In this document: positions 15,201 through 45,779 of the stretch, piece after piece
How the letters are laid out: each line of letters starts with the position of its first letter
How positions within the stretch are numbered: the first letter of the stretch is position 1
Source of the DNA: an uncultured Oscillospiraceae bacterium
GTDB taxonomy: Bacteria > Bacillota > Clostridia > Oscillospirales > Oscillospiraceae
Assembly (NCBI GenBank): GCA_934655875.1
Contig: CAKUHB010000009.1
Span: forward strand, 1-64,000
Length of the DNA: 64,000 nt
Reading direction: 5' to 3'
Position numbers and translations under genes: made by a program
Notes under the pieces: generated by a model
Told to the model about the DNA's origin: nothing
Databases searched by the model: none
Seen by the model: only the letters and a program-made list of their open reading frames with translations

Positions 15201-15434
15201 GATGCAGCAACTTATCACACGGTTGGTCTGAAAGCGGATGGAACCGTCGTTGCCACAGGAAATAATGGCGATGGGCAATGCAATGTCTCCGATTGGACAG
15301 ATATCGTTGCGGTGAACGCTGGTGGGTGGAATACCGTCGGCCTGAAAGCAGACGGTACCGTGGTCGTTGTTGGCGGTAACGTCGATGACAAGTGCAATGC
15401 TTCCGGCTGGACGGATATCAGGCTCCCCAACTGA
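12210..15434 (+). CDS. Zinc-ribbon / TIR-domain / TPR / single-TM / RCC1-like beta-propeller protein, paralog 1
   Basis: 1074 aa with these regions: an N-terminal CxxC..CxxC ribbon (KCKMCGG…CEYCG); a TIR-like region (DIFICYKETD…GYRVFFSRITLED…APWVKNEWSRYL) carrying the W-x-x-N-E catalytic-Glu motif; TPR-like helices; an E/K/Q-rich coiled coil; a TM helix (LTIIGGTAAAVILAAVLIITKVMIP) with positive residues on its N side; four ~40-aa repeats (A.ALL.AG.Y..A..AF.ALG.YKDA); and about eight RCC1-like blades (HTVGLKADGTVVAVG.N..GQCDVSDWTDI). It ends in IRLPN. Confidence 0.85.
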   Translation: MAMIKCKMCGGDLNVEENSQIAVCEYCGTQQTVPKQDNEKKLTLFARANRLRFACEFDKAAGVYESIVAEFPEEAEAYWGLVLCKYGIEYVDDPATGKKVPTCHRSSFDSVLEDANFELVMEYADVVTRKLYREEAKAIEELRRRIIEVSSREEPYDIFICYKETDENGQRTLDSVLAQDLYDALTEKGYRVFFSRITLEDKLGQEYEPYIFAALNSARVMLAVGTDYEYFNAPWVKNEWSRYLQRIAAGQKKSLIPCYKNIDAYDMPKEFAKLQAQDLGKVGATQDLLRGIDKLLGKTSTPAVPVQPAPMQAAAAPNVDSLLRRGNLFLEDRDWTNAKTYFDKVLDIVPECGAAYLGKFLAAKKAKTVASFVRRYVEDIAAHAPARTRQDACKPDETFIAACLNKYQVPEYLDAREIRSLLRFDLTYHAGLADYYHDCFLRAAQMLGSEKDFVRAEKYADADVQTQCELLRSKILNDLHARQQAAEQEEAGEKQRITEAYHTFLKETESTLAARQKEALEKKKAHDKLAERLRLEREKHEKAAAIEREKQEKLRKIAEQEAKQKAAKARKLTIIGGTAAAVILAAVLIITKVMIPSQKYANAAALLDAGNYDDAISAFAALGEYKDSAAMCSSAAHAKAYAEAETLLAAGDYKGASAAFAALQDYKDAASRADAARSQQLEAENAQAYANAEALLDAGNYAAAAKAFQALGDYKDAAERAQDCPYIEAEQLLAQGKTAEASIAFGRIAGYKDALERSFALRASSDPTIIAKDDHIVALKEDGTVVAIGNNEYGQCDVADWTNLVAIDAGFLYTVGLKADGTVLAVGYNDDGRCNVSDWTDITAIRAGSYHTVGLKTNGTVVAVGDNDLGQCDVADWTDITAISAREHHTVGLKADGTVVAVGYNRFGQCDVSGWTDIVAISTGYNHTVGLKADGTVVAAGNNEDGQCDVSDWTDIVAIKAAYKHTVGLKSDGTVVAVGFNEYGQCDVSDWTDMIAIDAATYHTVGLKADGTVVATGNNGDGQCNVSDWTDIVAVNAGGWNTVGLKADGTVVVVGGNVDDKCNASGWTDIRLPN

Positions 15435-15455
15435 CGAAGAAAGAAGGACGAGAAG

Positions 15456-18400: not shown

Positions 18401-18608
18401 AGTGAAATCAAATGGCACTGTTGTTGCCGCCGGTGAGAACGAAGATGGTCAGTGCAATGTATCTGGTTGGAGTAGTATCATTGCCGTGGCAGCAGGGTTC
18501 GACCACACTGTTGGCTTGAAGTCAGACGGAACTGTCGTTGCGGCCGGTGATAATTATTACGGTCAATGCAACGTTTCCAACTGGAAGAACATCAAGCTCC
18601 CCAATTGA
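15456..18608 (+). CDS. Zinc-ribbon / TIR / TPR / TM / RCC1-like protein, paralog 2
   Basis: 1050 aa with the same architecture. TIR motifs FDVFLCYKETGEDGQRT…VWVKNEWSRFL. TM helix LTLICAAVAAAVIAVVLIVTQVII. The RCC1 blades run to the C-terminus, which ends NIKLPN. The 22-bp junction with paralog 1 (gaaagaaggacgagaagATGGCAATTAT) is near-identical to the next junction. Confidence 0.85.
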   Translation: MAIIKCKMCGGDIEISADKTFGTCEYCGSTMTLPKVDDEQRAAAFNRGNHFRRSGEFDKALAVYERIVAEDDNDAEAHWCCALCRFGIEYVEDPATYEWLPTCHRASFDSFLEDVDYLAAVAHSDGITRRQYQKDAAKIAEVQRGILATSQNEQPFDVFLCYKETGEDGQRTRDSLMAQEVYYELTEQGYRVFFARITLEDKAGAEYEPYIFAALNSAKVMVVIGTKPEHFNAVWVKNEWSRFLSMMKKDRSKLLLPCYRDMDPYDLPEALSVLQSYDMSKIGFMQDLIRGVKKVLDAGKPQEAAKETVKETVVVHNEGGSNVQALLKRGNMALEDGEWSKADEFFEQVLNQDAECGAAYLGKFLSSRKAKSVQAYLQSCCKRIASNAPTAQKSSACEEDSAFIDACVKKYQVPDYYTPEDIHKALTHDRLYCADRAAYFREAQKEFNQALSADRNFVRAEKFADSETKAQCGTLRSETMTLLRQQEQQAEQEAAAEKQRVTEAYHAFLRETEPKLAEKQKQGLAKQEEDQKRKEEFERLRAEQKKRAEEAEKLAAQEAALKAAKAAKAKKLTLICAAVAAAVIAVVLIVTQVIIPSANYSKAEKLLTAGDYDSAITAFAALGNYKDAAEKITQAKEQKENERLAKEAAEEEARNAQAYADAEALLASGDYDGAIAAFTDLGEYQDAADRVKAIEAQKAEEKAKKVEAKNAQAYQEAVSLLESGNYSKASDAFAKLGSYKDAAIRRKECQYQMADQLQNDGDTAAAAVTFGKACGFNDAKERSLALWNVIAKRDVIAASWGYTVGVKADGTVVATGENDDGQCNVSKWKDIIAVAAGYGHTVGLKADGTVVATGNNDDGQCNVSGWSNIVAVAAGSSHTVGLKIDGTVVTAGSTICGESNWSDIISIAANTIVTVGLKTDGTVVDKPSWYSITAVAAGGVHTVGLKMDGTVIATGSNDHRQCNVSDWNNIIAVAAGTDHTVAVKSNGTVVAAGENEDGQCNVSGWSSIIAVAAGFDHTVGLKSDGTVVAAGDNYYGQCNVSNWKNIKLPN

Positions 18609-18629
18609 TAGAGAAAGAAGGACGAGAAG

Positions 18630-21458: not shown

Positions 21459-21473
21459 GAGAGGAAGAACGCA

Positions 21474-23333
21474 ATGAGCAAATTTGTAATTGAATGCCCC
21501 AAATGCGGGAAATACGCCGAAGCCAGCACCGGCCTGTTTGCAAAACGGAGGATCCCCTGCACGTGCGGGCACGCCATCGACGTGCGTACGGAACGGCTCG
21601 CGACCCGCGAATGCCCGCACTGCGGCAATACCGTCCTCTATGACCAGTCCAAGGGCGAAAAGGCGCTCTGCCCCGTCTGCCATACGCCGGTCAACACGAC
21701 GGCCCTTCAGCTCAAGACCGTGGAATTTTCCTGCGCGCAGTGCGGCATCCAGCTGCACGCGAGCAAGGCGGATACGACCTGCATCTGCCCCGTCTGCGGC
21801 TGCGAGAACGACGTGGAGCAGCGCGTCACGACCGACCGGATCAAAAAGGACGGTCTTGCCAGCATCATCAAATACGAGGGCGACAACGAGACCTTCGTCT
21901 GGAAGCACCCGATCGAGGACTTCAACTTCGGCTCGCAGCTGATCGTCCATGAGAGTCAGGAAGCGATCTTCTTCCGCGACGGGCAGGCACTCGACCTCTT
22001 CGGCGCGGGCCGCTACACGCTGCAAACGCAGCAGCTGCCGCTGCTGGAGAAGATCTACAAGCTCCCGACCGACACCGAGGGCACGTTCCATTCCGAGGTC
22101 TATTTCATCAACCTCGCCACCCAGATGGGCGTCAAATGGGGCACGGACAGCAAAGTCCGGATGTTTGACCCTGCGTCCCACCTGCCGATCGAGATCGGCG
22201 CGTCGGGCGAATTTAATATCCGCGTGACCGACTCGCGCAAGCTTCTTTTGAAGGTCGTCGGCACGACGGGCGGGCTTGGGCAGGAGCAGCTGCTGGGCAT
22301 CGGGAACGGCAAGGGCTTCTTCCGCTCGATGGTCATGACGCAGGTGAAAAGCTACCTTGCGCAGACGATCAAGGAAAACGCCATCGACATTCTGGAGATC
22401 GACGAGCACCTCATGGCGCTCTCCGGCGCGCTGCGCGAGCGGATCAACGCCGCGCTGGATGAATACGGCCTGACGATGCCGGAATTTTACGTCAGCCGTA
22501 TCGTAACGCCGGACGACGACCCCAATTTCCGCCGCATGAAGGAGCAGCACGCCGAGCAGTATCTGCTCGTCCGGCAGGAGAACATCCGCAAAGCCGAAGC
22601 CGAAGCCGCGGCAGGCCGCAAGGCGGTCGAAGCGCAGACGGCTGCCCACCTGAAGATCATCGGCGCGCAGGGCGACGCGGAAGCACTCAAGATCCAGAAG
22701 CAGGCCGAAGCCGAAGCCTATCGCATGCAGGCCGAAGCCGAAGCCGCCGAAATGCACATGAAGGGCTACAGCTATCAGCAGGAGTCCGCCCGGCAGGTCG
22801 GTCTGGAAGCGATGAAAAATGGCCTTGGCGGCGGCGCGAATGCTGCGGGCGCGCTGGGCGATCTCGCGGGGCTTGGTGTAAGTCTTGGCGCAATGGGCAG
22901 TGTCATCGGCATGACGAAGGATGCGCTGAACCCCATGACGCAGGACGCCGCGCAGATGGGCGCGGCCGTCGGTGCAGCCGGCACAGGCGGCTGGGACTGC
23001 CCGGCGTGCGGACACAAAAACATCACCACGAACTTCTGCCCCGACTGCGGCGGCAAAAAGCCCGAAGCAAAAACCGGCTGGGACTGCGCACAGTGCGGCA
23101 CAAAGAACATCCAGAGCAGATTCTGCCCGAACTGCGGCGCAAAGAAGCCGGAGGAGCCGAAGGGCTGGATCTGCCCGGACTGCGGCACGAAAGATATCAC
23201 GACGAACTTCTGCCCCAACTGCGGCACGAAGAAGCCGGAGGCGCCAAAGGGCTGGATCTGCCCGGACTGCGGCACGAAGGATATCATGACGAACTTCTGC
23301 CCGAACTGCGGACGGAAGAAGGAGGAGACATAA
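21474..23333 (+). CDS. SPFH/band-7 (YdjI-like) protein with three N-terminal and four C-terminal zinc ribbons
   Basis: 619 aa. N-terminal CPKCG…CTCGH, CPHCGN…CPVCH and CAQCG…CPVCGC ribbons precede a central SPFH-like domain (…FVWKHPIEDFNFGSQLIVHESQEAIFFRDGQALD…) and an A/E/Q-rich coiled coil. Four tandem 29-aa repeats GW(D/I)CP.CG.K.I...FCP.CG.KKPE, about 87 bp each, make up the 22985-23330 DNA region. Confidence 0.8.
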   Translation: MSKFVIECPKCGKYAEASTGLFAKRRIPCTCGHAIDVRTERLATRECPHCGNTVLYDQSKGEKALCPVCHTPVNTTALQLKTVEFSCAQCGIQLHASKADTTCICPVCGCENDVEQRVTTDRIKKDGLASIIKYEGDNETFVWKHPIEDFNFGSQLIVHESQEAIFFRDGQALDLFGAGRYTLQTQQLPLLEKIYKLPTDTEGTFHSEVYFINLATQMGVKWGTDSKVRMFDPASHLPIEIGASGEFNIRVTDSRKLLLKVVGTTGGLGQEQLLGIGNGKGFFRSMVMTQVKSYLAQTIKENAIDILEIDEHLMALSGALRERINAALDEYGLTMPEFYVSRIVTPDDDPNFRRMKEQHAEQYLLVRQENIRKAEAEAAAGRKAVEAQTAAHLKIIGAQGDAEALKIQKQAEAEAYRMQAEAEAAEMHMKGYSYQQESARQVGLEAMKNGLGGGANAAGALGDLAGLGVSLGAMGSVIGMTKDALNPMTQDAAQMGAAVGAAGTGGWDCPACGHKNITTNFCPDCGGKKPEAKTGWDCAQCGTKNIQSRFCPNCGAKKPEEPKGWICPDCGTKDITTNFCPNCGTKKPEAPKGWICPDCGTKDIMTNFCPNCGRKKEET

Positions 23334-25010
23334 ATGGCGGCAAAGCTGGAATGTGAAATCTGCGGCGGCAAGCTGATCGGCAAGCCCGGCGGCATCTTCG
23401 AGTGCGATTCCTGCGGCATGGAGTATTCCACCGAATGGGCCAAGGCCAAAATTCAGGAAATCAAAGGCACGGTCAAGGTCGAGGGCACGGTCGAGGTCAC
23501 CGGCAAGGTACAGGTCGAAGGCGGCACAGTGCAGGTCGAGGGCGCGGTGACAAAAGAGAGTCTTCTCAAGCGCGCGGAGATGTGCTGCGCGGAGAAGGAC
23601 TGGGGCAAAGCAAAGGCGCTGATTGAACAGGTTCTGAATATCGACCCGGAGTGCGGCGAAGCGTATCTGACCTCGGTGATGGTAGAGCGGGTCATGCAGT
23701 CAAAAGAAGACCTCCACGCATACTGCACCAACGCCATCCTTCCTCTGCCGCAAGGGAAAAACATGGAGCGCGCACAGCAGTTCCTGCCGGAGCTTTTTGC
23801 ACAATGGAAAGAAGAAAAAGAGCGCAACTACGCAGCGTATCTTAAGAAATACGAGGAAAGCGGCGCAGCGCAGCTGCGTGCGCGCTATGCAAAGACAGAT
23901 GGACTGCTGGTCTGTGGGTATCCCGGCCTGCTCGGGATTCGAACAGACGGAACTGTTCTGGTATCGGCAACAGAAACGCGGGAGCCGGACGCCGCCGCGA
24001 TCCGGCAGTGGGATGAGATCACAACAATTGCTTGCGGCGTGAATCATACAGTTGGCCTTCGGGCAGACGGCACAGTCGTCGCCGTTGGAAAAAATGGTAG
24101 CGGCCAGTGCAATGTTGAGAAATGGCGAAACATCACAGCAATTGCTTGCGGCGGGAATCATACAGTTGGCCTTCGGGCAGACGGTACGGTCGTTGCTGTC
24201 GGAGCAAATGAAAATGGACAGTGCAATGTCAGGGACTGGCGGGACGTCACAGCAATTGCTTGCGGCGATAGCCATACGGCTGGTCTTCGGGCAGACGGTA
24301 CGGTCGTTGCAGCCGGATGCAATGAAGAGCAGTGCAATGCCATCAAGGGCTGGCGGGATATTACCGCAATCGCCTGTAGCGGATCCCATACCGTCGGTCT
24401 CCGGGCAGACGGCACAGCGGCTGCGACAGACTATCCGAATTGTGAAAACTGGCGCGACGTTGTCTCGCTTGTGTGCAATGGCGAGTATGGTCTGCGGAAG
24501 AACGGGACGCTTGCGCCGAGCTGGGGCAATCTGTGCTGCGGCTGGTCGGACATTATCGCCGTTTCGGGTTATGGCAGTCATATCTCCGCGCTGCGCAGCG
24601 ACGGAACGGTTATATGCGCTGGCGGCGGAGAAAGCCAAAAGTGGACGGATATCGTCAGCATTTGCAGCATCCTCGATAAGGTGTATGGCATACGGAAAGA
24701 CGGTACCGTCGTGGCGGCTGGCGAATCTCATAGAGATGTTTCCGGCTGGCGCTTATTTAACAGTATTGATACCTTGGAACAGGAGCGCACGAAAGGACTG
24801 GCACGTGCCCGGGCCGAACACCTTGCAAAGGAAAAGGCCAAAGCTGATCGCATCGCACAGAAAAAAGCAGAGCTTCAGGCTGAACGGGACGAACTGCAAG
24901 CAGAGCTTTCGCAGCTCAAGGGGCTGTTTTCCGGCAAGCGCCGAAAAGAAATTGAACTTCTGCTGACCGTCAACCGGTATGAGCTTCAGGAATTGGAGGA
25001 ACAGGCATGA
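23334..25010 (+). CDS. Soluble zinc-ribbon / TPR / RCC1-like repeat protein (no TIR, no TM)
   Basis: 558 aa with an N-terminal CEICGG…CDSCG ribbon, a (K/T)VEGTV repeat, one TPR-like unit, at least 7 RCC1-like blades (NHTVGLRADGTVVAVG.N..GQCNV..W.DITAIACG) and a C-terminal coiled coil. The start overlaps the preceding stop (TAAATGG). Confidence 0.8.
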   Translation: MAAKLECEICGGKLIGKPGGIFECDSCGMEYSTEWAKAKIQEIKGTVKVEGTVEVTGKVQVEGGTVQVEGAVTKESLLKRAEMCCAEKDWGKAKALIEQVLNIDPECGEAYLTSVMVERVMQSKEDLHAYCTNAILPLPQGKNMERAQQFLPELFAQWKEEKERNYAAYLKKYEESGAAQLRARYAKTDGLLVCGYPGLLGIRTDGTVLVSATETREPDAAAIRQWDEITTIACGVNHTVGLRADGTVVAVGKNGSGQCNVEKWRNITAIACGGNHTVGLRADGTVVAVGANENGQCNVRDWRDVTAIACGDSHTAGLRADGTVVAAGCNEEQCNAIKGWRDITAIACSGSHTVGLRADGTAAATDYPNCENWRDVVSLVCNGEYGLRKNGTLAPSWGNLCCGWSDIIAVSGYGSHISALRSDGTVICAGGGESQKWTDIVSICSILDKVYGIRKDGTVVAAGESHRDVSGWRLFNSIDTLEQERTKGLARARAEHLAKEKAKADRIAQKKAELQAERDELQAELSQLKGLFSGKRRKEIELLLTVNRYELQELEEQA

Positions 25011-30464: not shown

Positions 30465-31394
30465 TCATTTCCGATTCCCGCCCGCTTCTATGATCATCGC
30501 TTCCAGCTCCTTTGCGGCGACGCTGAGGGGCTGGTCTTTTCGTTTGACGAGACAGACGCTGCGCAGCGGGAGCGGATCGGCGAGGTCGATCACGCGCACG
30601 TTGTCGGACGGACGGATAAAATCCCGCGGGACAATGCCGACGCCAAGGCCGGATTCGACCATCGGCAGGATCTGGTCGGCGGTGAACGCTTCAATATCCG
30701 GGCGGAACGGCAGGCCGTGGGCGGCAAAGAAGCCAGTATAGAGCGCATAGGACTGTGTGTCCGCGCCAAGCGTGATGAGCGGATGGCGGCGCAGCTCGTC
30801 CAGCGTGACCTTGCGCCCCAGAAGATCCCCGAACGCCGGCGCGCAGACCGCGACCTCCTGGATCTGCCGGATATTGATTTGCACATAGGCAGCCGCGCGC
30901 AGCACCGGCGTTGTGACCACGGCAAAATCGGCGGTCGTCCCGCGCAGGGCGGCGATGGCCTGCGGGGTCGAGTAATTGCTGATGCGCAGGCGCACGCCCG
31001 GATAGCGCGCGCGGAACGACTCCAATACCGGCAGGAGCAGGCAGCGCAGCGCGCCCTCGCTCGCGGCAAGAAACACCGTGCCGGTCTGCAAAGACCGGCT
31101 CTGCGCCAGCTCCGCTTCTCCGGCTTCGAGCTGCTCGACGGCAATTCTGACGTGCCGGTAGAGCTGCTCGCCCTCCGGCGTCAGCTTCATGCCGCGGTTC
31201 GTCCGGGAAAAGAGCGTACAGCCCAGCTCTGCTTCGAGATTTTTGATCGAACGCGTCAGGTTCGGCTGATTATTGACCAGCTCTCTTGCCGCCTGCGAGA
31301 GATTCCCGCACTTCGCAACATAATAGAAAATCCTGTAATACTCATAATTTACGTCCATGTGTGTCTCCTCCGGTATATCAAACGCATATGCCAA
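30465..31394 (-). CDS. LysR-family transcriptional regulator
   Basis: 309 aa with the N-terminal HTH YYRIFYYVAKCGNLSQAARELVNNQPNLTRSIKNLEAELGCTLFSR and a C-terminal substrate-binding fold. It is divergent from the atp operon. Confidence 0.85.
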   Translation of the reverse strand: MAYAFDIPEETHMDVNYEYYRIFYYVAKCGNLSQAARELVNNQPNLTRSIKNLEAELGCTLFSRTNRGMKLTPEGEQLYRHVRIAVEQLEAGEAELAQSRSLQTGTVFLAASEGALRCLLLPVLESFRARYPGVRLRISNYSTPQAIAALRGTTADFAVVTTPVLRAAAYVQINIRQIQEVAVCAPAFGDLLGRKVTLDELRRHPLITLGADTQSYALYTGFFAAHGLPFRPDIEAFTADQILPMVESGLGVGIVPRDFIRPSDNVRVIDLADPLPLRSVCLVKRKDQPLSVAAKELEAMIIEAGGNRK

Positions 31395-31806: not shown

Positions 31807-32628
31807 ATGAGCAAAAAGCGTAAGATCCTTTCGCTTGTGGTTCTCGGCGTTCTGCTGCTCGCTTCGCTGGCGCTCAGTCTGCTGTGCGGCAGGAGCGGCG
31901 CGAAGGAATCGCTGCAAACGATCATGCGGGACGCAGTTCTGCATGAGGACAATAAAATCAGCCTGTTCGGGCTGATGGACGTGAATCCGGCCGTCGTTTC
32001 CGGATTGATCGTCACGGGCGTGCTGCTGGTTCTGGCAGCGCTGGCGCGGCTCTTTGTGATCCCGCGATTTCAGTATAAGCCCGGAAAGCTTCAGCTGCTA
32101 TTAGAGGAGCTTGTGACGTTCTTCCGGAACCTTGCACAGACGAACAGCCCGCACCGCAATGGATTTCTGGGCGCGTATCTGTTCGGCGCGGGCGTCTATG
32201 TATTCTTCGGTACGCTCTTTGAGCTGTTCGGCCTGCAGGCCGTGACGACGGCCGGCGGCTCCATTTCCCTTCCCGCGCCGCTGTCGGATATCAACGCAGC
32301 CGTCAGTGTCGGCTGCATGTCCTATCTTGTGATCCTTGGCGGCGGCATCGCGGCAAATAAGCTCCGGGGCGCTGCCAACACGCTCAAGGATTTCTCACTT
32401 CCCATCTCCATGAGCTTCCGTCTGTTCGGCGCGCTGCTGAGCGGTCTGCTTGTCACGGAGCTTGTTTATTATTCGCTCAGCCTGAGCTTCGTGCTGCCGG
32501 TGTTCGTGGGCGTCATGTTCACGCTCCTGCACGCGCTCATCCAGACGTATGTCCTGACGACGCTCGTGTCGATCTTCTACGGTGAGGTCACGGAGCCGCA
32601 TATCAAAAAAGCCAAGCAGAACGCTTGA
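31807..32628 (+). CDS. atpB: F0F1 ATP synthase subunit a
   Basis: 273 aa, polytopic, with the conserved arginine motif ISMSFRLFGALLSG. Confidence 0.9.
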   Translation: MSKKRKILSLVVLGVLLLASLALSLLCGRSGAKESLQTIMRDAVLHEDNKISLFGLMDVNPAVVSGLIVTGVLLVLAALARLFVIPRFQYKPGKLQLLLEELVTFFRNLAQTNSPHRNGFLGAYLFGAGVYVFFGTLFELFGLQAVTTAGGSISLPAPLSDINAAVSVGCMSYLVILGGGIAANKLRGAANTLKDFSLPISMSFRLFGALLSGLLVTELVYYSLSLSFVLPVFVGVMFTLLHALIQTYVLTTLVSIFYGEVTEPHIKKAKQNA

Positions 32629-32647: not shown

Positions 32648-33010
32648 ATGAAACTGACTGCAAAACGAATGGTATCCCTGATGCTTGTCATGCTGCTCGT
32701 CTGTGCGCTGCTCGCCGTATCGGCCAGCGCGGCAGATACCGCGGACACCGCACCTGCCGCAGAGGCCGCAGCTGCGGCTGAAAACTCGACCGGTGCAAAA
32801 GCGATCGCCGCAGCGATCGTTGTCGGTCTTGTTGCAACGGCCGGCGCACTTGGCATGGCCATCGCCATCGGCAAGAGCGCCGAGGGCATGTCCCGCCAGC
32901 CGGAGGCCTCCGGCAGCATCCGGTCCTCGATGATGCTGGGTCTGGTCTTTATTGAGACCGCCATCATTTATGCCCTGATCGTCGCCATTCTGATCATCTT
33001 CGTGCTGTAA
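32648..33010 (+). CDS. atpE: F0F1 ATP synthase subunit c with an N-terminal ~45-aa signal-like extension
   Basis: The core GAKAIAAAIVVGLVATAGALGMAIAIGKSAEGMSRQPEASG…GLVFIETAIIYALIVAILIIF is a typical c-subunit hairpin with the carboxylate in IETA. The ATG at 32648 follows GGAGGAACGG. The extension reads MKLTAKRMVSLMLVMLLVCALLAVSASAAD. Confidence 0.8.
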   Translation: MKLTAKRMVSLMLVMLLVCALLAVSASAADTADTAPAAEAAAAAENSTGAKAIAAAIVVGLVATAGALGMAIAIGKSAEGMSRQPEASGSIRSSMMLGLVFIETAIIYALIVAILIIFVL

Positions 33011-33022
33011 AGGAGAAATAGT

Positions 33023-33502
33023 ATGGGAGTACCGCTGAATATCGACTGGCAGCAGATCCTGCTGCACGCATTTAATCTGATCATCCTGACGGGCGGACTG
33101 TATTTCCTTCTGTATCAGCCCGTCACCGCATTTATGAAAAAACGGCAGGACTATTATGCCGGTCTGGAAGCTGACGCACAAGCAAAGCTGCGCGAAGCCG
33201 AGCAGAAGGTCCAGCAGGCCGACGCCCGTCTTTCCGGCATGCAGGCAGAAGCGGAGCAGCTGCGCGCGGACGCCATAAAGCAGGCCGACGCGGAAGCCGC
33301 CGCCCGTCTTGCAGGCGCGGAAGCGGAAAAGCAGAAGATCCTCGCCGCCGCAAAGGCGCAGGCCGCGCGGGAGAAGGACGCCATGCTGCGCGAAGCCAAC
33401 GAGCAGATCGGCGCGCTGGTCTCCAACGCGGTCGACAAGCTGGTCTCCGACGCGGACGATCCGTATGCAGACTTTCTGCACGCAGTCAAGCGGGGAGCAT
33501 AA
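33023..33502 (+). CDS. atpF: F0F1 ATP synthase subunit b
   Basis: 159 aa with an N-terminal TM helix followed by a long A/E/K/Q-rich helix. Confidence 0.8.
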   Translation: MGVPLNIDWQQILLHAFNLIILTGGLYFLLYQPVTAFMKKRQDYYAGLEADAQAKLREAEQKVQQADARLSGMQAEAEQLRADAIKQADAEAAARLAGAEAEKQKILAAAKAQAAREKDAMLREANEQIGALVSNAVDKLVSDADDPYADFLHAVKRGA

Positions 33503-33505
33503 CGC

Positions 33506-35271
33506 ATGAACGAGCAGAAGCTGCAGGCCCGCGTATACAGCCGCACCGCTCCGACCGAGGAGCAGCTTGCGCAGCTGCGCGACTTCCTGCATCAGAAATA
33601 CCAGCGTCCGGTCAGCCTGCATTGGGAGCGGGACGAGCGGATGAAGGACGGCTTCCGGCTGGAGCTTGGTGAGGGCAATCGCCGCGAGCTGGTCTATGAC
33701 TGGAGCAGCTCCGGCAAGAGCCGCCAGCTGAAGGATAAGATCGCCGCCGCCATCCGCAGCCGGAGCGACGTCATCCCGCTGCTCCGGAAAACGCTGGAGG
33801 AGTTCCGCCCGGAAGCAGCCGCAACCGAGATCGGCACCGTCCTCTCCTACGGCGACGGCATCGCCGAAGTCAGCGGTCTGCCGGGCGCGGAATACGGCGA
33901 GATCCTGATTTTTGAAAACGGCGTGTGCGGCATGGTGCTTGATCTGAAGGAGAAAAGCATCGGCTGCGTCGTTTTTGCAGGTGAAGCCGCCGTACAGGCT
34001 GGCAGTACCGTTCTGCGCAGCGGCAGATCTGCCGGTATCCCGGTCGGCGACGCGTTTCTCGGCCGCGTGATCGACCCGCTCGGCGCGCCGATCGACGGCA
34101 AGGGCGAGATCGCAGAGTCGGACTACTACCCCATCGAATCCCCTGCCCCCGGCATCATCGACCGGCAGCCGGTCGACAAGCCCATGCAGACGGGGCTTCT
34201 TGCCATCGATTCTATGTTCCCCATCGGCCGCGGCCAGCGCGAACTTATCATCGGCGACCGGCAGACCGGCAAGACAGCCATTGCGCTCGATACGATCCTC
34301 AACCAGAAGGATCAGAACGTCGTGTGCATCTATGTCGCCATCGGCCAGAAGGCGTCCTCCGTTGCGCAGCTCGTGCAGACGCTGCGGGCGCATGACGCGC
34401 TGCGCTATACCATCGTTCTGTGCGCGGCGGCCAGCGATTCCGCGCCGTTGCAGTACATCGCGCCCTATGCGGGCTGCGCGATGGGCGAATATTTCATGCA
34501 TCAGGGCCGCGACGTGCTGATCGTATATGACGATCTTTCCAAGCACGCGGTCGCGTACCGCGCATTGAGCCTGCTTCTAAAGCGTTCCCCAGGCCGTGAA
34601 GCCTATCCCGGCGACGTGTTTTACCTGCATTCGCGTCTTCTTGAGCGCGCAGCACATCTGGCCGACCACTTAGGCGGCGGCAGCATGACAGCGCTGCCGA
34701 TCGTCGAGACGCAGGCAGGCGACGTCTCCGCCTATATTCCGACCAACATCATCTCCATCACGGACGGCCAGATCTTTCTGGAGAGCAGCCTGTTCTTCGC
34801 GGGCCAGCGGCCTGCCGTCAACGTCGGTCTGTCTGTGTCCCGTGTCGGCGGGGCGGCGCAGACAAAGGCCATGAAAAAGGCCGCGGGCGCGATCCGTCTG
34901 GAGCTGGCGCAGTACCGCGAGATGGAGGTCTTCATGCAGTTCTCCAGCGATCTGGACGACGCGACGCGCCGCCAGCTTGCCTACGGACAAGGCCTCATGC
35001 AGCTGCTCCGGCAGGAGCAGTCCCACCCATATTCCCAGCACGCGCAGGTGCTTCTGCTTGTGAGCGCGCTCGGCCATGCCTTTCTGCCCGTGCCGCCTGC
35101 GCAGGTGCGCTCCGTCGCGCAGCGGATGCTCTCCTGTCTGGAGCAGGAGCTTTCCGCCCTTTGCAGCCGGATCGACACGACCGGCCAGCTGACAGACCGG
35201 GACTGCGCGCAGATCCTTGACGCTGCAAAGCGGTTTGTCTCGCAGCATCTGAACCTGGACGGTGAGCATAA

Positions 35272-35275
<4 letters not shown>
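33506..35275 (+). CDS. atpA: F0F1 ATP synthase alpha subunit with an N-terminal fused delta (OSCP) C-terminal-domain remnant
   Basis: 589 aa. Residues ~95-589 are canonical alpha, including the Walker A GDRQTGKT. Residues ~8-85 ([67 protein letters not shown]) align with the C-terminal domain of delta subunits (…VYS..PLSEQEL..L…G..V…G.R..DGSVSGQL). No separate atpH ORF lies between atpF and atpA. Confidence 0.85.
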
Positions 35276-37984
<2,709 letters not shown>

Positions 37985-38869: not shown

Positions 38870-41800
38870 TTATTGCAGCTTTTCCTGCACTGCGGCCGGG
38901 ATGGCGCAGTTGTCCTTCGTCAGGTCGCTGCGGAAGTCGAAGGAGGCGGAGATGGAGATCTGGGTATCGACGATGCTGACCTGTACGCTGCCGCCGACCG
39001 AGGCGCGCAGGGCCGTGATTTTCCCATCCTGCACATCCAACTCGATCGTGCCGGGCAGATACTGCACATTGAGCTTCTCCGCGTCCGGCGCGATGGCGAT
39101 GGCCGCCTGCCGCGTGCGTTCCTCGCTGAGGGTCAGCGTGTAGGTATAGCCGCTCTGGGTCTGCGTGCTGCTCGCTGCGCCCTCCAGGCACGCGCGATAG
39201 GCAATGTCCATGAGATCCGCGCAGCGCACGAGCGTCTGCTCGCTGGCCGTCGGCGTTTTGCCGTCCTTCGTCCAGACCTGCTCGCCCACGAAATAGAGCT
39301 CCAGCGCGCCCGCACGCAGGCAGCTGACCGTTCTTCCGTCCTGCACGGTGCGGAAGTAGTCGAGCGAGGTATCGAAGATCACGGGGCCGCAGTTGGCGCT
39401 GAGCTTTACGCGTGCGGCCAGCGGGTCGCGCTTGCCAAGCTCCGACACAGCGGACAGCACCCGCAGCAGATCCTCGGTCAGCTCCAGCTTCCCCTGATAG
39501 CCGCCGTTCGCCATGGCGTCGGTCACGGCCTTGGGGACGCTGTGCACGGTCTGCGCGTCCTCCTCGATCGTCAGCTCGGCCCAGACGGTCATCGACTGGG
39601 TCTGGCCGTCGCTTCCCGCGGCTTTTCCGCTGCCGGAAGCTTCGATGGAGCGGATCGCACCGTCCGTCACGTGCATGCACAGGTCGATGCTCTCGACTGC
39701 GGTCAGAGAATCGGCGATCGTCGGCGTCAGCAGCGACAACGCCTGCTCCGCGTCCGAACCATAGGCCGTCACGGAATAGACCTCTTCCCCGCTCTCGCGG
39801 GCATAGGTCACGTCGGTCGCGTTATACAGCTCGAGAATATGCTCGCCCAGTGTGGAATAATCCGGGAACAGGCCGCTCGTGCGGTACGCGCTGCCGTTTT
39901 CGAGATAGATCGAGCCGTCATAATAATACAGCTGCACGCCGTTTTCCTCGATGCAGAGGATCTGCTTGCCGTCGGCCTGCGTGCGGAACAGATGCGCGTC
40001 CGTTTGCAGTGTCTCGCTGCCGAGCTCCATCTGTACGGAAGCGCTCATGTCCAGCTCTTTTCTGGCGGACAGATTTTTGAGCAGCAGCAGGGCGTCCACG
40101 CTGCTCTTGAGACTGGCGCGGTAGATGAGGATACCCGCCGCAGCCAGAGCCACAACAGCCAGCGCGATGATCCACCAGAGTCTGTGCTTCTTTTTCTTTT
40201 CTGCGGACAGCAGCTGCTCCTCCTCGGAAGGCACCTGCCCTGCGCCCTCGGACATGACCGCGTTGTTGGCGTTCTGCTCGGCCTGCATGGCACTGCGCAG
40301 CGCCTGCATCTGGCGTCTTCTTGCCTTGCCGAGCTTGTGAATAAGGTGGATGATCAGCAGCACCAGCAGCGCCGCGAGCCCTGCCAGCACGATCCAGAGC
40401 CACCAGACCTGGAACGTCGACAGTGCCGCCAGCTGCACCGTCTGTCCTTCCGCCTGGAAGGACAGATAGCTGCCGACCTGCGTGGTCTTGACCTTTTTCC
40501 AGACGCCGTTTTCGTTCTGCAAATAGATATCCAGCTTCCCCTTCTGGCCGTCCGGCGCGCGGTAGCGGATGGTATGCGTCTGCGCGCCGTCGTCCGGCAG
40601 GCGCAGCTGCCACTGCTCGACAACGGACTTGGCAACATGCGCCGCAGGCGCATGGCCGTCGGAGATATTCTCAAAGTATTTCCGGATCGCTTCCGGGATG
40701 CTGGCGGAGATCTCGCCGAATGCGGACGGTGTGATCGCCTGCGGCTGCGCTTGCAGCCGGTCGGTGTCCGTATACGCGCCCTCGGCAAAGAAGACCGGGC
40801 GGCCGTCGCCGCGGGCCGCTTCGCTGGTCAGCGCATCCACACAGGTGTGGTATTCCGCCGTGACGGTGGTGTCAAAGCGGATGTTTTGCAGGCTCCGGAT
40901 ATCCCAGACGCCGTACTGGCCGTCCACCGCGGGGATCTCCGGATAGACGGAATCGTCAAGCGAGTCGCCATAGTCCACCGCGACGGTCTTCAGGATCTCG
41001 CCGTCTGCCACGAACTGCACCGTAAAGGTCTTGAACGCGTCCGGGAGCGCTTCGTTCTCCAGAAGCGACCGGTAGGAGACCGGCTCCGCCTGCGTGCTGA
41101 CGCTCACGCCGTCAAGACCCGCCAGCGTGTCAGAGACGAAGCGGTTGTCTGCGAATGTCCCGGCATTGCTGCCCGCGATCGCACCGGCGTACTGCTCGCA
41201 GTCCGTGATGGTCACGAGCGACGTGCAGCCGGTGACGGTGCTGCCGTCTCCTGTCAGGCTGTCCGTCACGCCGGAGCCGACGATGCCGCCAAGATACCGG
41301 CTGCCGGACAGCGCGCACTTGGCATAGCTGTCCTGCACCGCGGCGGCGCAGATCCCGGCAATGCCGCCGACATAGCTGCCGCTCTCACTGTTTACGCTGC
41401 CGTAGGCTTCGCAGCTGTCGATCAGGCCCAGATCCATCCGGCCGCAGATCGCCGCCGCGCAGTCCTTTTTGGCCGTGACGCTGCCGGTATTGACGCAGCT
41501 CTGCAAAACGGCCTTCAGCTCATACTGCTTGCGCTCCTGCGTGGAAAGGCTTTCGGAGACGTCGCTCTCGGGGTCGACGTCATATTCCAGCGCCATCGCG
41601 CCGGCAATGCCGCCGACGTTGCGGTCGGCCTGCACGCTGCCGCTGTTTTTGCAGCCGCGCAGCGCGCCGAGCGTCACCGCGTCCGCCGCATCCTGCGACG
41701 TATCCGAGATCACATCCTGATTCTCCACGGCGTCCATGGCATCGAACACCGTCTGGCTGATCTCATCGAGCTTGTCGCTGACGGCTTGCAGATCGCCGGT

Positions 41801-43285
41801 CAGCGTCGCAGAGAGGTTGGCTGTTTGGGAGCCGATGGCGCGCATCTGTGCGCCCATGCCGCTCAGTGCGGAAGCAAGCTCCGGCAAAGACGCGTCGGCG
41901 TTCATTTGCAGCGACGCGCTGATCGCGCCTGCGCCGTCTGTGCCGCCGGACAGCGACACATCCGAGGGATCCACATAGCCGCCCGCACCGACGCCCGCAC
42001 CAATGCCGTGCGAGGTATCGATCTCGATCGGGTGACTGGAAATGCTGACGCTGCTGTCCGTCCCCGCGCCCGCCGCAACTCCGGCGCCCGCAGTGGCTTC
42101 GCCGATCTCCAGCTCTGCGCCGCCCGAAATGCCGCCGTTTGCCAGTGCGCTGCCGTCAATCGTGGCGCTGGCCTTGAGGTTATTGGCCGCGTTCGACGCG
42201 CTGTCCAGATACGAGCCCATCCCGGCCAGCTGCGAACCGATGGCGCTGGCCGCGCCGCCGGCGTCTTCGGTTGCCTTGTCGGTCAGCGTTTTGAGCTCCT
42301 GCAGCTGCCGCTGGAGCTGATCTTTCGTGCTTTCCGAGACGATGATCGCCACATACGGCTCTGCCTGTCCGGCGATGCCGCCGACGTCCTTGCGGCCGAA
42401 GATCGTGCCGGTGTTGGTATTGTTGAGCAGATACCCGCTCGTGCTGCCGGCGATGCCGCCGACGTTATAGCCCACATGCTCATAGCCGACCGTGCCCTCG
42501 TTCGTGCAGCCGACGATCATGCCGGTGTTGCTCCCGGCGATGCCGCCGGTGGAGGTCGTCGTGAGAAGGGTCTGGGACTTGTTCAGATTGGCAAGATCGA
42601 AGGTCAGATCGATCTGAATGTCGGTCAGGTTCAGCGCGGCGTCCACGCTGTTGGGGTTGACGCTGCCGCTGTTGGTGCAGTGGCGGATCACGCCGCTGTT
42701 CCGTCCGGCGATGCCGCCGGTGGCGTTCGTCGCCTGCACCATGCCGGTAAACGTGCTGCTGATGATCTCGCCGGACAGCTCGTTGCAGCCGACAAGACCG
42801 CCGATCTGCGCGTCGCCCTGCACCATGCCGGTGAAGCTGCAGCAGACGATGCGGCCGTAGTTTTCGCCTGCAATGCCGCCGCAGACCGTCTGGTCGCCGC
42901 CCGCGGCGACAGAGCCTGTCACGTTCAGATTTTCCACCTGCCCGGAGGGCTGGATGGTGCCGAAGAGGCCGGCCGGGCTGTAGCTGCCTGTCAGATCAAA
43001 GTCGGAAATGGTATGCCCGCCGCCGTCAAACGTCCCGCCGAAGGACGCCGCAGGCGCGCAGTCCATGCCCGCCAGCGAAATATCCGTCCGCAGCACGACC
43101 GTCTTTCCCTGTGACCAGGTATCGAGCGCACAGTTTTTGACAAAGGCTTCAAAATCGCTTGCAGAATCGATATAAACGGTATCCGTGCCGTCCGCCGCGG
43201 CGGCGCACAGCACCGACGGCAGGCACAGACACAGAGCCAGAAGCAGCACCAGAAGGCGTCTGGCAAGAAGCGTTCTCTTATTCAT
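38870..43285 (-). CDS. Large surface protein with GLUG-type (GGIAG) repeats, two TM helices and a large C-terminal extracytoplasmic domain
   Basis: The start was trimmed to the ATG at 43285 (MNKRTLLARRLLVLLLALCLCLPSVLCAAAAD, a signal peptide, preceded by AAGGAGG). The Arg/Ser-rich 98-aa upstream extension of the ORF is judged spurious. Numerous GG(I/L)AG(S/R)N repeats are present, with TM helices (WWLWIVLAGLAALLVLLII and LWWIIALAVVALAAAGILIY). It is 1471 aa from the trimmed start. Confidence 0.7.
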   Translation of the reverse strand: MNKRTLLARRLLVLLLALCLCLPSVLCAAAADGTDTVYIDSASDFEAFVKNCALDTWSQGKTVVLRTDISLAGMDCAPAASFGGTFDGGGHTISDFDLTGSYSPAGLFGTIQPSGQVENLNVTGSVAAGGDQTVCGGIAGENYGRIVCCSFTGMVQGDAQIGGLVGCNELSGEIISSTFTGMVQATNATGGIAGRNSGVIRHCTNSGSVNPNSVDAALNLTDIQIDLTFDLANLNKSQTLLTTTSTGGIAGSNTGMIVGCTNEGTVGYEHVGYNVGGIAGSTSGYLLNNTNTGTIFGRKDVGGIAGQAEPYVAIIVSESTKDQLQRQLQELKTLTDKATEDAGGAASAIGSQLAGMGSYLDSASNAANNLKASATIDGSALANGGISGGAELEIGEATAGAGVAAGAGTDSSVSISSHPIEIDTSHGIGAGVGAGGYVDPSDVSLSGGTDGAGAISASLQMNADASLPELASALSGMGAQMRAIGSQTANLSATLTGDLQAVSDKLDEISQTVFDAMDAVENQDVISDTSQDAADAVTLGALRGCKNSGSVQADRNVGGIAGAMALEYDVDPESDVSESLSTQERKQYELKAVLQSCVNTGSVTAKKDCAAAICGRMDLGLIDSCEAYGSVNSESGSYVGGIAGICAAAVQDSYAKCALSGSRYLGGIVGSGVTDSLTGDGSTVTGCTSLVTITDCEQYAGAIAGSNAGTFADNRFVSDTLAGLDGVSVSTQAEPVSYRSLLENEALPDAFKTFTVQFVADGEILKTVAVDYGDSLDDSVYPEIPAVDGQYGVWDIRSLQNIRFDTTVTAEYHTCVDALTSEAARGDGRPVFFAEGAYTDTDRLQAQPQAITPSAFGEISASIPEAIRKYFENISDGHAPAAHVAKSVVEQWQLRLPDDGAQTHTIRYRAPDGQKGKLDIYLQNENGVWKKVKTTQVGSYLSFQAEGQTVQLAALSTFQVWWLWIVLAGLAALLVLLIIHLIHKLGKARRRQMQALRSAMQAEQNANNAVMSEGAGQVPSEEEQLLSAEKKKKHRLWWIIALAVVALAAAGILIYRASLKSSVDALLLLKNLSARKELDMSASVQMELGSETLQTDAHLFRTQADGKQILCIEENGVQLYYYDGSIYLENGSAYRTSGLFPDYSTLGEHILELYNATDVTYARESGEEVYSVTAYGSDAEQALSLLTPTIADSLTAVESIDLCMHVTDGAIRSIEASGSGKAAGSDGQTQSMTVWAELTIEEDAQTVHSVPKAVTDAMANGGYQGKLELTEDLLRVLSAVSELGKRDPLAARVKLSANCGPVIFDTSLDYFRTVQDGRTVSCLRAGALELYFVGEQVWTKDGKTPTASEQTLVRCADLMDIAYRACLEGAASSTQTQSGYTYTLTLSEERTRQAAIAIAPDAEKLNVQYLPGTIELDVQDGKITALRASVGGSVQVSIVDTQISISASFDFRSDLTKDNCAIPAAVQEKLQ

Positions 43286-45779
43286 CTGCCTGCGCCTCCT
43301 TTCCTGCATCCTCTGTATCCGGCGGCGTTTCGGGCGGAGCATCCGGTGCCTCCGGCTCCTCCTCTTCCGTGCCGGAGAGCAGGCTGACGTTGACATCGCC
43401 GTCCACGTACGCATGCACAACGCCGTGGATCTGGCCGCGGATCTCGCCGCGGACCATGCCGTCGATGCGGATGCGGCCGCTCGCCTGCCGCTGTGAAACA
43501 GCGGTCGGCATGTCGAAGGAGGTCTTATCGATGACCTTCTCGCCCAGCAGCAGGATCTGCGGGAGGATGAACATGACAATGATAATGGTAATGATCGTGC
43601 CGCGGCCCAGACTGTCGCCGATTCCGGCGATGGCCGCGTTGGAGGTCATCTGGCCGATCAGGATACCGGCAATGACCATCATAAGGCCCGAGGTGATGAT
43701 CGTCGGGAATGCGAGGTTCATCGTCTCGATGATCGCGTCCTTCTTTGGCATTTTGTCCTTAAATTCCATGAAGCGGCTGGTCGTCACGATGGCATAGTCG
43801 ATGTTCGCGCCCATCTGGATGGACGAGACAACCAGATAGCTGAGGAAGAACAGGGGGCTGTTCGTGATGGTGGGAATGCCGTAGTTGATCCAGATACTGC
43901 CCTGAATGACGAGGATCAGCAGGACCGGGATACCGGCCGATTTGAACGTGAACAGCAGGACCACAAGGACAATGAGGATGGACAGCACCGACACGACCAC
44001 GTTGTCGCGCGAGAACGACGCCTTGAAATCCTGCTCGGACGAGGAATCGCCCACGACATACACGTCGCCGTCCGGGTAATAGCTTTTCGTGACGAGCCGG
44101 ATCTGATCCAAGAACTCATACGTCTCGTCGCCGCCGACCGGCAGATTCAGATAGACCAGCATACGGCTGTAGCTGTCGGACTGCAGCTGCTTTTTCGCGT
44201 TCTGGATCTGCGTGTTGGCGTCCTCCAGCGTCTTGGTCATGTCATCGTCCAGAGAGACATAGCCCTGCTGCATCTCGTCGTAGAGGAACGAGAACATATC
44301 AATGAGCGGCACGGAATAGTTCGGCAGGCCACCGATGATCTTGCCGTAATTTTCGGTGTCTGCGGCATATGCCGCGTAGAGAAGCTCCGCGACCTCATAG
44401 TCGAGGTCGGTCAGCTCGGAGAACTGCCGCGGGTTCAGCGCGTCCGTCAGCATGTAGTCTCCCATGGCCTCCACATTGGAAAGGCCCAGCGTGGAATCGA
44501 CCTCGTCATAGGTCTCCAGCTCATCCAGAAGCTTCTTTTCCGACGGGTAATCCCCGGACGGGACCACGACGGCCACCATATTGGTCGAGCCGAAGGTCTC
44601 GTCGATCAGATTTTCCGCGATCTGCTGGTCGGACTGCTTCGCGGTCTTCAGATAGCTGAAGCCGTAGACATACGGGCAGTTCTGCGCGAAGATCATCGCG
44701 ACGATGATGACAGCAAGGAAGACCGGCGGGATGATCTTTTTGGTCGCATAGGCGAATCTGCCGACGAAGGGGATTTTCGGGACAAAGTTTTTGTGGCGCG
44801 TGGCGTCGATCTTCTTGCCGAACAGCATGAGAAGCCCCGGCATCAGGAAGAAGACGGAAAACAGCGAGAAGAAGATGGACTTGATCAGGCAGATACCGAG
44901 GTCAAAGCCCAGCCGGAACTCCATGAACAGCATCGCCACCAGACCGCCGATCGTCGTGAGACTGCTGCCGCAGATCTCCGGCACGGCCTTGCTGAGCGCG
45001 ACGATGACCGCCTCCCGGATGGGAAGCGTCTCATGCTCCTCCTTATAGCGGTTGCAGAGAATGATCGCATAGTCGACCGACAGCGCCAGCTGCAGAACGA
45101 TCGTGACGGAGTTCGACACGAACGAAATCGTGCCCAGCAGGAAGTTCGTGCCCATGTTCAGAAGCGCCGCCGCAACGAACGTGATCAGCAGCACCGGCAC
45201 CTCGGCATACGTCTGCGAGGTCAGAATCAGAACCGACACGACGACGATCGCCACGATGATGACGATGACGCCGATCTCCTGCGCGAGGACCTTGGACGCC
45301 GTATCGCCGAAGGTCGCGGAGACGTACATATCATAGTCTGCAAGACGCTCCTCCACCTCGTTCAGGACGGTCTCGCAGCGCTCGTCGTCCTCGGAATAGT
45401 CGAAGGTGATATCGTACAGCGCGGAAGCGTTCGTATAGTGCGCATCCGTGTCGTCAAACGTCACGCCCTGCACGCCGTCGATGTCCGCGAGCTGCTCGCG
45501 GATCGCTTCCGCTTCATCGTAGGAGACGTTGACGAGCATGATCTGCGCCGTGCCGAACGTCGTAAATTCGTCCTCCATAAGCTGCAGGCCCCGATACGTC
45601 TCGGAGTCCTTCGGCAGGTAGGCGGAAAGCTGATTTTCCACCTGCACCCAGTTGCGCGAGAAAACCGAAAAGATCAGCCCAATTGCAACGATCAGGAAGA
45701 TCAGGTTTCGCTTATCAACGATAAAGCTGGCAAATTTGTACATAAAGCCTTCATTCTGGTTCTTTGCATTCTGGCTCAT
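43278..45779 (-). CDS. MMPL/RND-superfamily membrane transporter
   Basis: 833 aa with two hydrophobic 6-TM bundles, each followed by a large loop (MMPL topology), and an acidic P/E-rich C-terminal tail. Its stop overlaps the downstream gene start (ATGAATAA). Confidence 0.8.
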   Translation of the reverse strand: MSQNAKNQNEGFMYKFASFIVDKRNLIFLIVAIGLIFSVFSRNWVQVENQLSAYLPKDSETYRGLQLMEDEFTTFGTAQIMLVNVSYDEAEAIREQLADIDGVQGVTFDDTDAHYTNASALYDITFDYSEDDERCETVLNEVEERLADYDMYVSATFGDTASKVLAQEIGVIVIIVAIVVVSVLILTSQTYAEVPVLLITFVAAALLNMGTNFLLGTISFVSNSVTIVLQLALSVDYAIILCNRYKEEHETLPIREAVIVALSKAVPEICGSSLTTIGGLVAMLFMEFRLGFDLGICLIKSIFFSLFSVFFLMPGLLMLFGKKIDATRHKNFVPKIPFVGRFAYATKKIIPPVFLAVIIVAMIFAQNCPYVYGFSYLKTAKQSDQQIAENLIDETFGSTNMVAVVVPSGDYPSEKKLLDELETYDEVDSTLGLSNVEAMGDYMLTDALNPRQFSELTDLDYEVAELLYAAYAADTENYGKIIGGLPNYSVPLIDMFSFLYDEMQQGYVSLDDDMTKTLEDANTQIQNAKKQLQSDSYSRMLVYLNLPVGGDETYEFLDQIRLVTKSYYPDGDVYVVGDSSSEQDFKASFSRDNVVVSVLSILIVLVVLLFTFKSAGIPVLLILVIQGSIWINYGIPTITNSPLFFLSYLVVSSIQMGANIDYAIVTTSRFMEFKDKMPKKDAIIETMNLAFPTIITSGLMMVIAGILIGQMTSNAAIAGIGDSLGRGTIITIIIVMFILPQILLLGEKVIDKTSFDMPTAVSQRQASGRIRIDGMVRGEIRGQIHGVVHAYVDGDVNVSLLSGTEEEEPEAPDAPPETPPDTEDAGKEAQADE

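Follow-up and report, generated by a model that had tools for sequence, protein, structure and literature searches.

In the present study we analysed a stretch of 64,000 nucleotides (nt) from an uncultured Oscillospiraceae bacterium (contig CAKUHB010000009.1 of GenBank assembly GCA_934655875.1, positions 1 to 64,000 of the forward strand), hereafter called the window, and found that in its F-type ATP synthase operon the delta and alpha genes, atpH and atpA, are now one gene, from which the N-terminal helical bundle of delta has been deleted. This gene, at 33506..35275 on the + strand, is a single open reading frame (ORF) of 589 amino acids (aa) in which delta's C-terminal domain (delta is also called OSCP) is followed by a full alpha subunit, and we are nearly certain that it encodes a genuine, functional fusion subunit of the deltaΔN-alpha kind, that is, delta without its N-domain joined to alpha. 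The window gene is the natural counterpart of a design which Ueno et al. (Nat Commun 2025; PDB 9JC1; PMC12229609) engineered in the FoF1 of Bacillus PS3, and, by analogy with that enzyme, we lean somewhat to the explanation that the native complex carries more than one peripheral stalk.

An earlier note on this DNA, made from its letters alone, had described a 589 aa alpha at these positions and had taken its first ~85 residues for delta's C-terminal domain; both the coordinates and the assignment proved to be right. When residues 1-105 were compared alone with the Pfam OSCP profile PF00213, the kind of comparison that the note had proposed for residues 1-95, they scored 24.4 bits (E 3.6e-5), above the gathering cut-off of 22.3 bits, and of the 172 positions in the profile the match spanned only 100-171. 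The same residues matched two NCBIfam delta equivalogs (E 2.4e-5 and 8.3e-5) at positions ~100-178, and, for want of the N-terminal domain, their scores stayed far under the equivalog cut-offs; for TIGR01145 the score was 22.9 bits against a cut-off of 57.5, which is short of what a separate delta polypeptide should reach. A single-sequence phmmer search of residues 1-105 against PDB gave just E ~0.8 to a delta chain, and a family profile was needed, which we built from the N-terminal 130 aa of 28 family members. Run against PDB, this profile matched solved delta chains (E ~1e-6) in their C-terminal domains only, namely at 107-176 of E. coli 5t4o_L, 107-176 of PS3 6n2y_I and 113-187 of Paracoccus 5dn6_H, and it also matched the mycobacterial b-delta chain at 373-439. 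The domain at residues 1-85 (33506..33760, +), which would be the docking domain for the b2 stalk, is thus homologous to delta/OSCP, yet it lacks two features that define that family, as it has no N-domain and is not a separate subunit.

The remainder of the protein, residues 86-589 (33761..35275, +), makes up a complete F1 alpha. Residues 87-579 scored 724 bits against TIGR00962 (cut-off 484.45), which by sequence places the window protein in atpA, the F-type ATP synthase alpha, and PF02874, PF00006 and PF00306 were all above threshold, in keeping with the N-terminal helix, beta-barrel, nucleotide-binding domain (with the motif GDRQTGKT) and C-terminal helical domain of this part. At the junction the last delta helix passes through a natural segment of ~8 residues, AAAIRSRS, into the N-terminal helix of alpha. 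In family alignments the fused delta C-domains have YDWS, with an invariant Trp, in place of the YDGS or IDGS of canonical deltas; one may speculate that this Trp is linked to how the domain packs on F1 when no N-domain is present.

There is no room for an atpH ORF, nor for a delta N-terminal domain, between atpF, which ends at 33502, and the start of the fused gene at 33506; the earlier note had rightly pointed to this missing ORF, as well as to the absence of the N-terminal bundle. The stop codon TAA of atpF is followed by 3 nt (CGC) and then by the ATG of the fused gene, and a GGGGAG motif resembling a Shine-Dalgarno sequence lies upstream. Positions 1-99 of the delta profile found no match in the fused protein, and six-frame searches of the window and of six related loci, including 10 kb on either side in four related genomes, yielded no ORF resembling the delta N-domain. 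Scanning ~48 ORFs of the window against Pfam gave no other OSCP match. We also looked for a standalone short delta, an unfused C-domain, and every short match inspected turned out to be a fragment of the fusion, cut at a contig end or frameshifted.

The two genes on either side of this gap, atpF and the fused gene, share one reading frame and are separated by the TAA plus one codon (window 33500-33508), a spacing which is conserved in four related loci (L001-L004) and in a Lachnospiraceae-type locus (L008) and which probably reflects translational coupling. A single stop codon is hence all that separates b from the delta-CTD-alpha protein (CTD, C-terminal domain).

The predicted structure agrees with the profile searches. 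An AlphaFold2 model of residues 1-190, computed with a family alignment of 81 sequences (pLDDT, predicted local distance difference test, 83.5; pTM, predicted template modelling score, 0.70), placed a strand at 6-12, a helix at 18-32, strands at 36-42, 51-56 and 62-65 and a helix at 68-84; these four strands and two helices give the topology of the delta C-domain, and they are followed in the model by the alpha N-terminal helix (89-98) and the beta-barrel. When this model was submitted to Foldseek, the best matches were chains I, J and K of 9jc1, the engineered PS3 fusion, with E 7e-13 to 3e-12 over 177-180 columns (query-normalised template modelling score, TMq, 0.61-0.67; rmsd, root mean square deviation, 4.1-4.5 A), whereas plain alpha chains gave E no better than 3.5e-8 over only ~99 columns. 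The full-length model was poor (pLDDT 64.5), and nevertheless its top three Foldseek matches were also 9jc1 I/J/K. Chain 9jc1_I (580 aa) was likewise the top PDB match of the family profile, with E 2.4e-18, and it aligned collinearly, its residues 6-574 with residues 8-576 of the window protein.

By sequence, the window gene has the architecture that defines the deltaΔN-alpha class, with the N-domain deleted and the C-domain placed in-frame on the N-terminus of alpha. In the PS3 enzyme, according to Ueno et al., residues 2-104 of delta were deleted and the remainder joined in-frame to the alpha N-terminus, leaving no separate delta, just as in the window (PMC12229609). The natural truncation lies ~5 residues before the first strand of the C-domain and coincides with the boundary chosen by the engineers. 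The two proteins are nearly alike in length (580 and 589 aa) and their linkers are about equally long, synthetic and of the GGSGGS type in PS3 and the natural AAAIRSRS in the window. They differ in that their delta domains are only ~34% identical, that PS3 has YDGS in place of the YDWS of the window family, and that the natural enzyme keeps the C-terminal domain of epsilon. Multiple stalks were seen in the engineered enzyme, whereas the window enzyme is known here from its genes.

In a scan of one genome per GTDB species, an uninterrupted version of the ORF, 588-589 aa long and joined to atpF by the same TAA-NNN-ATG sequence, was present in four more species-level genomes (UMGS830, HGM13073, a Hadza metagenome-assembled genome (MAG) and UMGS1192), all from uncultured Oscillospiraceae/Clostridiales of the human gut, and the identical protein was present on independent ENA gut-metagenome contigs. 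Among five sequences, the window and four relatives, the ratio of nonsynonymous to synonymous substitution rates (dN/dS) was 0.10-0.29 in the delta part and 0.05-0.10 in the alpha part; since these values are well below 1, the N-terminal extension is under purifying selection. The earlier note had asked whether related genomes hold the same fusion or a frameshifted atpH, and it is the in-frame fusion that they hold.

A search with residues 1-92 against 1.84 billion cluster representatives returned 172 matches at E<=1e-3, in nearly all of which the domain starts between residues 1 and 10, with the alpha N-terminal helix and a G-x-V-x-x-VGDGIA motif behind it; at least 47 of the 172 are unambiguous fusions. 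With the full-length query, 115 of the best 120 clusters were 581-608 aa long, most of them with PF00213 together with the alpha domains, the other five being two truncated entries, one of 832 aa with a duplicated segment and two of 675-676 aa. More than 100 protein clusters from gut Clostridia carry the fusion, and judged from these sequences the class is widespread there. NCBI labels the full entries as 'F0F1 ATP synthase subunit alpha' (Lachnospiraceae, Cuneatibacter) and the contig-end fragments as 'subunit delta, partial' (Oscillospiraceae, Lawsonibacter, Eubacterium, Christensenellales, Clostridia). Word-indexed searches with the N-terminal piece brought up fragments of at most 245 aa only, many with frameshifted tails, and it was the full-length query which gave intact fusions.

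These fragments bear on the trivial explanation, namely that a frameshifted or truncated atpH merged with atpA through a sequencing or assembly error, or that the gene is a pseudogene. Many database fragments of the fused gene do show frameshifted tails and come from low-quality assemblies. Against this, an ORF of 588-591 aa occurs in at least five independent assemblies and more than 100 clusters, its delta part is under purifying selection, and only 3 nt separate it from atpF, so that no coding sequence for an N-domain can be hidden in another frame. We give such an artefact a negligible probability, and a frameshift or assembly error is effectively refuted by the intact ORF in independent assemblies combined with dN/dS well below 1. 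It is also very improbable that the fused ORF yields separate products, an ordinary alpha and a free or sub-stoichiometric short delta, through internal initiation near the junction or proteolysis. In L001-L004 the Val of RSDVIPLL, codon 89, is encoded by GTG and a GGAG lies 4 nt upstream of it, as such initiation would want, but in the window codon 89 is GTC and no in-frame ATG, GTG or TTG lies between codons 46 and 140, while L008 lacks the GTG/GGAG arrangement, and the GGAG is simply part of conserved Arg-Ser codons. A conserved internal start for free alpha was accordingly rejected, being found in four relatives and neither in the window nor in L008. Moreover, a free delta C-domain without the N-domain has no known anchor on F1, which is the reason that Ueno et al. 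give for fusing it (PMC12229609).

How many stalks such an enzyme would carry is the main point to be weighed. Encoded in one gene, every alpha is made with a delta C-domain covalently attached to its N-terminal helix. Where the delta N-domain ordinarily grips the alpha N-termini without a covalent bond, this link would take its place, and each F1 head (alpha3beta3) would then present b2 with three equivalent docking sites. From its usual seat on the threefold axis the delta N-domain restricts an enzyme to a single stalk; here it is missing, and the restriction would be lifted. Ueno et al. designed their enzyme on this rationale, placing the delta N-domain on the pseudo-threefold axis (PMC12229609). 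We expect more than one stalk because the engineered PS3 deltaΔN-alpha behaves so: it carried as many as three b2 stalks, with one a-subunit for each, and on average ~2 stalks and ~2 a-subunits, its H+/ATP was 5.8 as compared with 3.0, and its equilibrium proton-motive force was halved (PMC12229609). The earlier note had supposed that the fusion fixes the stalk to one alpha, so that only one of the three alphas binds b2, and the engineered fusion, which bound as many as three b2, speaks against this. By the same analogy the window complex would be expected to take on two or at most three b2 stalks, every one with an a-subunit of its own. Ions per turn would then multiply as N_c x N_a, the numbers of c- and a-subunits, and the ion/ATP ratio would rise as N_c x N_a / 3, so that ATP could be made at a lower ion-motive force, a property that would be of use to a fermenting gut anaerobe whose energy comes in small quanta.

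Several points weigh against a multi-stalk enzyme. The stoichiometry of any natural deltaΔN-alpha enzyme would follow by analogy; most cryo-electron microscopy (cryo-EM) particles of the engineered enzyme had lost stalks, and its activity was below that of the wild type (PMC12229609). The operon holds a single atpB and a single atpF, the sequence being silent on their expression ratio. The invariant Trp of YDWS shows that the delta C-domain has diverged, and b-binding by this domain is a prediction from its sequence. The LysR linkage and the mobile-element context described below may, in addition, be compatible with an accessory enzyme. One could therefore argue that the fusion merely tethers a single stalk, with one of the three delta C-domains binding b2 and a and the other two idle atop F1. 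A single stalk is what almost all characterised bacterial F-ATPases have. Cryo-EM of the engineered fusion showed many particles with just one (PMC12229609), and one atpB with one atpF is the content of ordinary operons. However, the PS3 fusion, with no other adaptation, averaged ~2 stalks and a-subunits biochemically and showed 3 in cryo-EM (PMC12229609), and, since the delta N-domain that would break the symmetry is missing, no sequence feature would close off the remaining two sites. We consider a single-stalk enzyme rather unlikely, though it deserves to be taken seriously.

A full-length canonical delta from another part of the genome, be it an orphan atpH or part of a second atp operon, could also bring the enzyme back to one stalk, or else the fused operon could be an accessory beside a normal F-ATPase. 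A gene for a LysR-family transcription regulator (30465..31394, -; Pfam HTH_1 and LysR_substrate) lies divergent from the atp operon in the window, and orthologues stand upstream of the fused operon in L001 (6987-7892), L003 (6307-7209) and L004 (6498-7385), with 83-87% identity, and in L008 (3270-4160), with 65%. A LysR regulator beside an atp operon is, to our knowledge, unusual, and its conserved divergent position suggests that the operon is conditionally expressed. A 70%-identical operon of Lachnospiraceae type (P0344, the same protein being found on 171 contigs; L008, L009, L010) is flanked in L008-L010 by phage-type integrases, IS110/DDE transposases, HipA and Phd/ParE toxin-antitoxin genes, as accessory operons often are, and in that lineage the fused operon may be mobile or accessory. 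The LysR linkage and these surroundings favour an accessory role. In the window, on the other hand, the neighbours of the operon are housekeeping genes (spoIIGA/sigE, aconitase, IDH, holB) with the same G+C content at third codon positions (GC3), the searches of the 64-kb window and of 10 kb on either side in four related genomes gave no ORF resembling a delta N-domain, and fused alpha N-termini would probably be poorly accessible to such a domain. Taken together, a restoring delta or an accessory status seems improbable for the window operon, and our preferred reading remains a deltaΔN-alpha enzyme with more than one stalk.

The fusion as such is not a new kind, having been recognised in print since 2025. 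Ueno et al. report natural deltaΔN-alpha fusions in Acidaminococcus fermentans (D2RLW6) and in two further UniProt entries, G4Q3K6 and A0A1I2C5T3, and predict that natural fusions form multi-stalk enzymes in nature (Discussion and Supplementary Fig. 9; PMC12229609). The stator arrangement that the earlier note called unusual thus has precedents. In A. fermentans the same fusion without a delta N-domain lies in the atp operon of a strict anaerobe, the multi-stalk state being again a prediction (PMC12229609). The lineages differ, the window belonging to Oscillospiraceae and the fusion being found also in Lachnospiraceae/Cuneatibacter, Lawsonibacter, Eubacterium and Christensenellales MAGs, while the paper names A. 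fermentans and the two UniProt entries; the long, signal peptide-like c subunit (see below) and the LysR linkage of the window are not mentioned in the passages of Ueno et al. considered here (PMC12229609). The window gene is thus a new member, from a different lineage, of a natural kind without any characterised natural member.

Among other F-type enzymes, that of Chloroflexus aurantiacus was solved as a two-stalk a2b4delta2c10 complex (PNAS 2025; PMC12002316). It resembles our reading of the window in that it occurs in nature, is F-type and can have more than one stalk and more than one a-subunit through a changed delta N-domain, with a higher H+/ATP proposed. It differs in having a separate delta of 157 aa, whose shortened four-helix N-domain dimerises, and in having two stalks (PMC12002316), whereas in the window the delta N-domain is missing and alpha carries the C-domain. 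We examined whether the window enzyme could be of the Chloroflexus type, and rejected this as no delta N-domain of any length was found in the Pfam scans of the window or in the six-frame searches of the window and related loci. The mycobacterial b-delta fusion (atpFH; PDB 7JG5 chain d) likewise joins a stalk component covalently to its neighbour and has a homologous delta C-domain, but its partner is b, delta still has its N-domain and each complex has a single copy and a single stalk. A b-delta fusion of this type was rejected for the window, where b has 159 aa and ends at the TAA and PRK13428 scored 16 bits (cut-off 328). The N-ATPase, an alternate F1Fo which also lacks atpH, was rejected as well: the window has the canonical gene order and not atpDCQRBEFAG with AtpQ and AtpR, and the scores were 627 bits against TIGR03324 (cut-off 750.5) and 42.8 against the alternate-b TIGR03321 (cut-off 224.7). 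A/V-type ATPases offer a functional analogy, but their stalk proteins E and G are unrelated, their a-subunit is single and their catalytic subunits belong to other families; the window proteins score as F-type.

The operon is contiguous and in canonical order on the + strand, encoding a, c, b, the delta-CTD-alpha fusion, gamma, beta and epsilon, and its GC3 matches that of its neighbours. It begins with atpB for Fo subunit a (31807..32628, 273 aa; PF00119 ATP-synt_A, E 1.4e-15), for which gene callers also offer a shorter start giving 227 aa, and in which the essential Arg lies within the motif SMSFRLFG. Next come atpE for Fo subunit c (32648..33010, 120 aa; PF00137 matching residues 54-117 only) and atpF for Fo subunit b (33023..33502; PF00430, E 3.9e-14), of ordinary length and with no delta part attached. 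The fused gene is followed by atpG for F1 gamma (35272..36174, 300 aa; PF00231, E 2.2e-88), atpD for F1 beta (36171..37577, 468 aa by translation from a TTG start; PF02874, PF00006, PF22919) and atpC for F1 epsilon (37574..37984, 136 aa, with the C-terminal helical domain; PF02823, PF00401).

The c subunits that go with the fusion are 120-127 aa long as against the usual ~70-90. Their N-terminal extension of ~45 aa is kept in L001-L004 and in L008 (7117-7500), and from its sequence it looks like a cleavable signal peptide, with MKLTAKR, a hydrophobic stretch and SASA/AD ahead of the usual hairpin. The ion site is E-T-x-x-x-Y on helix 2, with Met in the place at which Na+-binding c subunits carry Gln/Glu32 (I. 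tartaricus numbering). Two loci with variant fusions, L011 and L012, have ordinary c subunits of 64-71 aa (71 aa in L011). The first belongs to a set of delta-alpha fusions that keep a short delta N-domain of ~95 aa, represented by P0281 and P0283 (675-676 aa; P0283 is encoded at L011 3693-5720) and by the fragments P0130, P0136 and P0151. The contigs of P0281 and P0283 may be chimeric assemblies, because the C-terminal half is nearly identical to the window alpha; the fragments support the architecture independently. In the second (P0163; L012 2692-3408, Oscillospiraceae MAG GCA_046953995.1) two tandem delta C-domains precede the alpha N-terminus, and the b subunit is unusually long (244 aa).

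Elsewhere in the window, a 1569-aa ORF with high GC3 (38870..43579, -) has no Pfam match at 1e-5 and adjoins an MMPL-family transporter gene (43278..45779, -); this pair lies directly downstream of the atp operon, and the same pair follows the operon in the related locus L006. Upstream, at 12210-25010 (+), lie three tandem paralogous giant ORFs (1074, 1050 and 942 aa), all of which have TPR repeats, then a TIR_2 domain at residues ~158-282 and, at the C-terminus, RCC1 repeats. After them come a zinc-ribbon SPFH/Band-7 protein and a further protein with RCC1 repeats. The region 12210-25010 may be a defence-type island.

The number of stalks and a-subunits has long been treated as one in F-type ATP synthases. 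In 2025 the engineered deltaΔN-alpha enzyme and the Chloroflexus structure showed that the number can vary and that it sets H+/ATP jointly with c-ring size (PMC12229609; PMC12002316). The window and its relatives show that the same design arose naturally, beyond Acidaminococcus, in common gut Clostridia, where selection conserves it and where a long-form c subunit and a LysR regulator accompany it. As a tentative extension, which we regard as possible rather than probable, the deltaΔN-alpha operon of many abundant human gut Clostridia (Oscillospiraceae, Lachnospiraceae, Christensenellales) might be a regular, LysR-controlled F-ATPase that in vivo has three stalks and three a-subunits and an ion/ATP ratio near the c-ring number, its stator design still varying; if so, only a few tens of millivolts of ion-motive force would suffice for ATP synthesis. 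If the enzyme is single-stalk, it would mean that a covalent tether can replace the delta N-domain. If it is multi-stalk, the gut carriers would offer native material for tests of the N_c x N_a rule, and the ATP yields that textbooks assign to Rnf/Ech-driven energy conservation in gut anaerobes would have to be revised.

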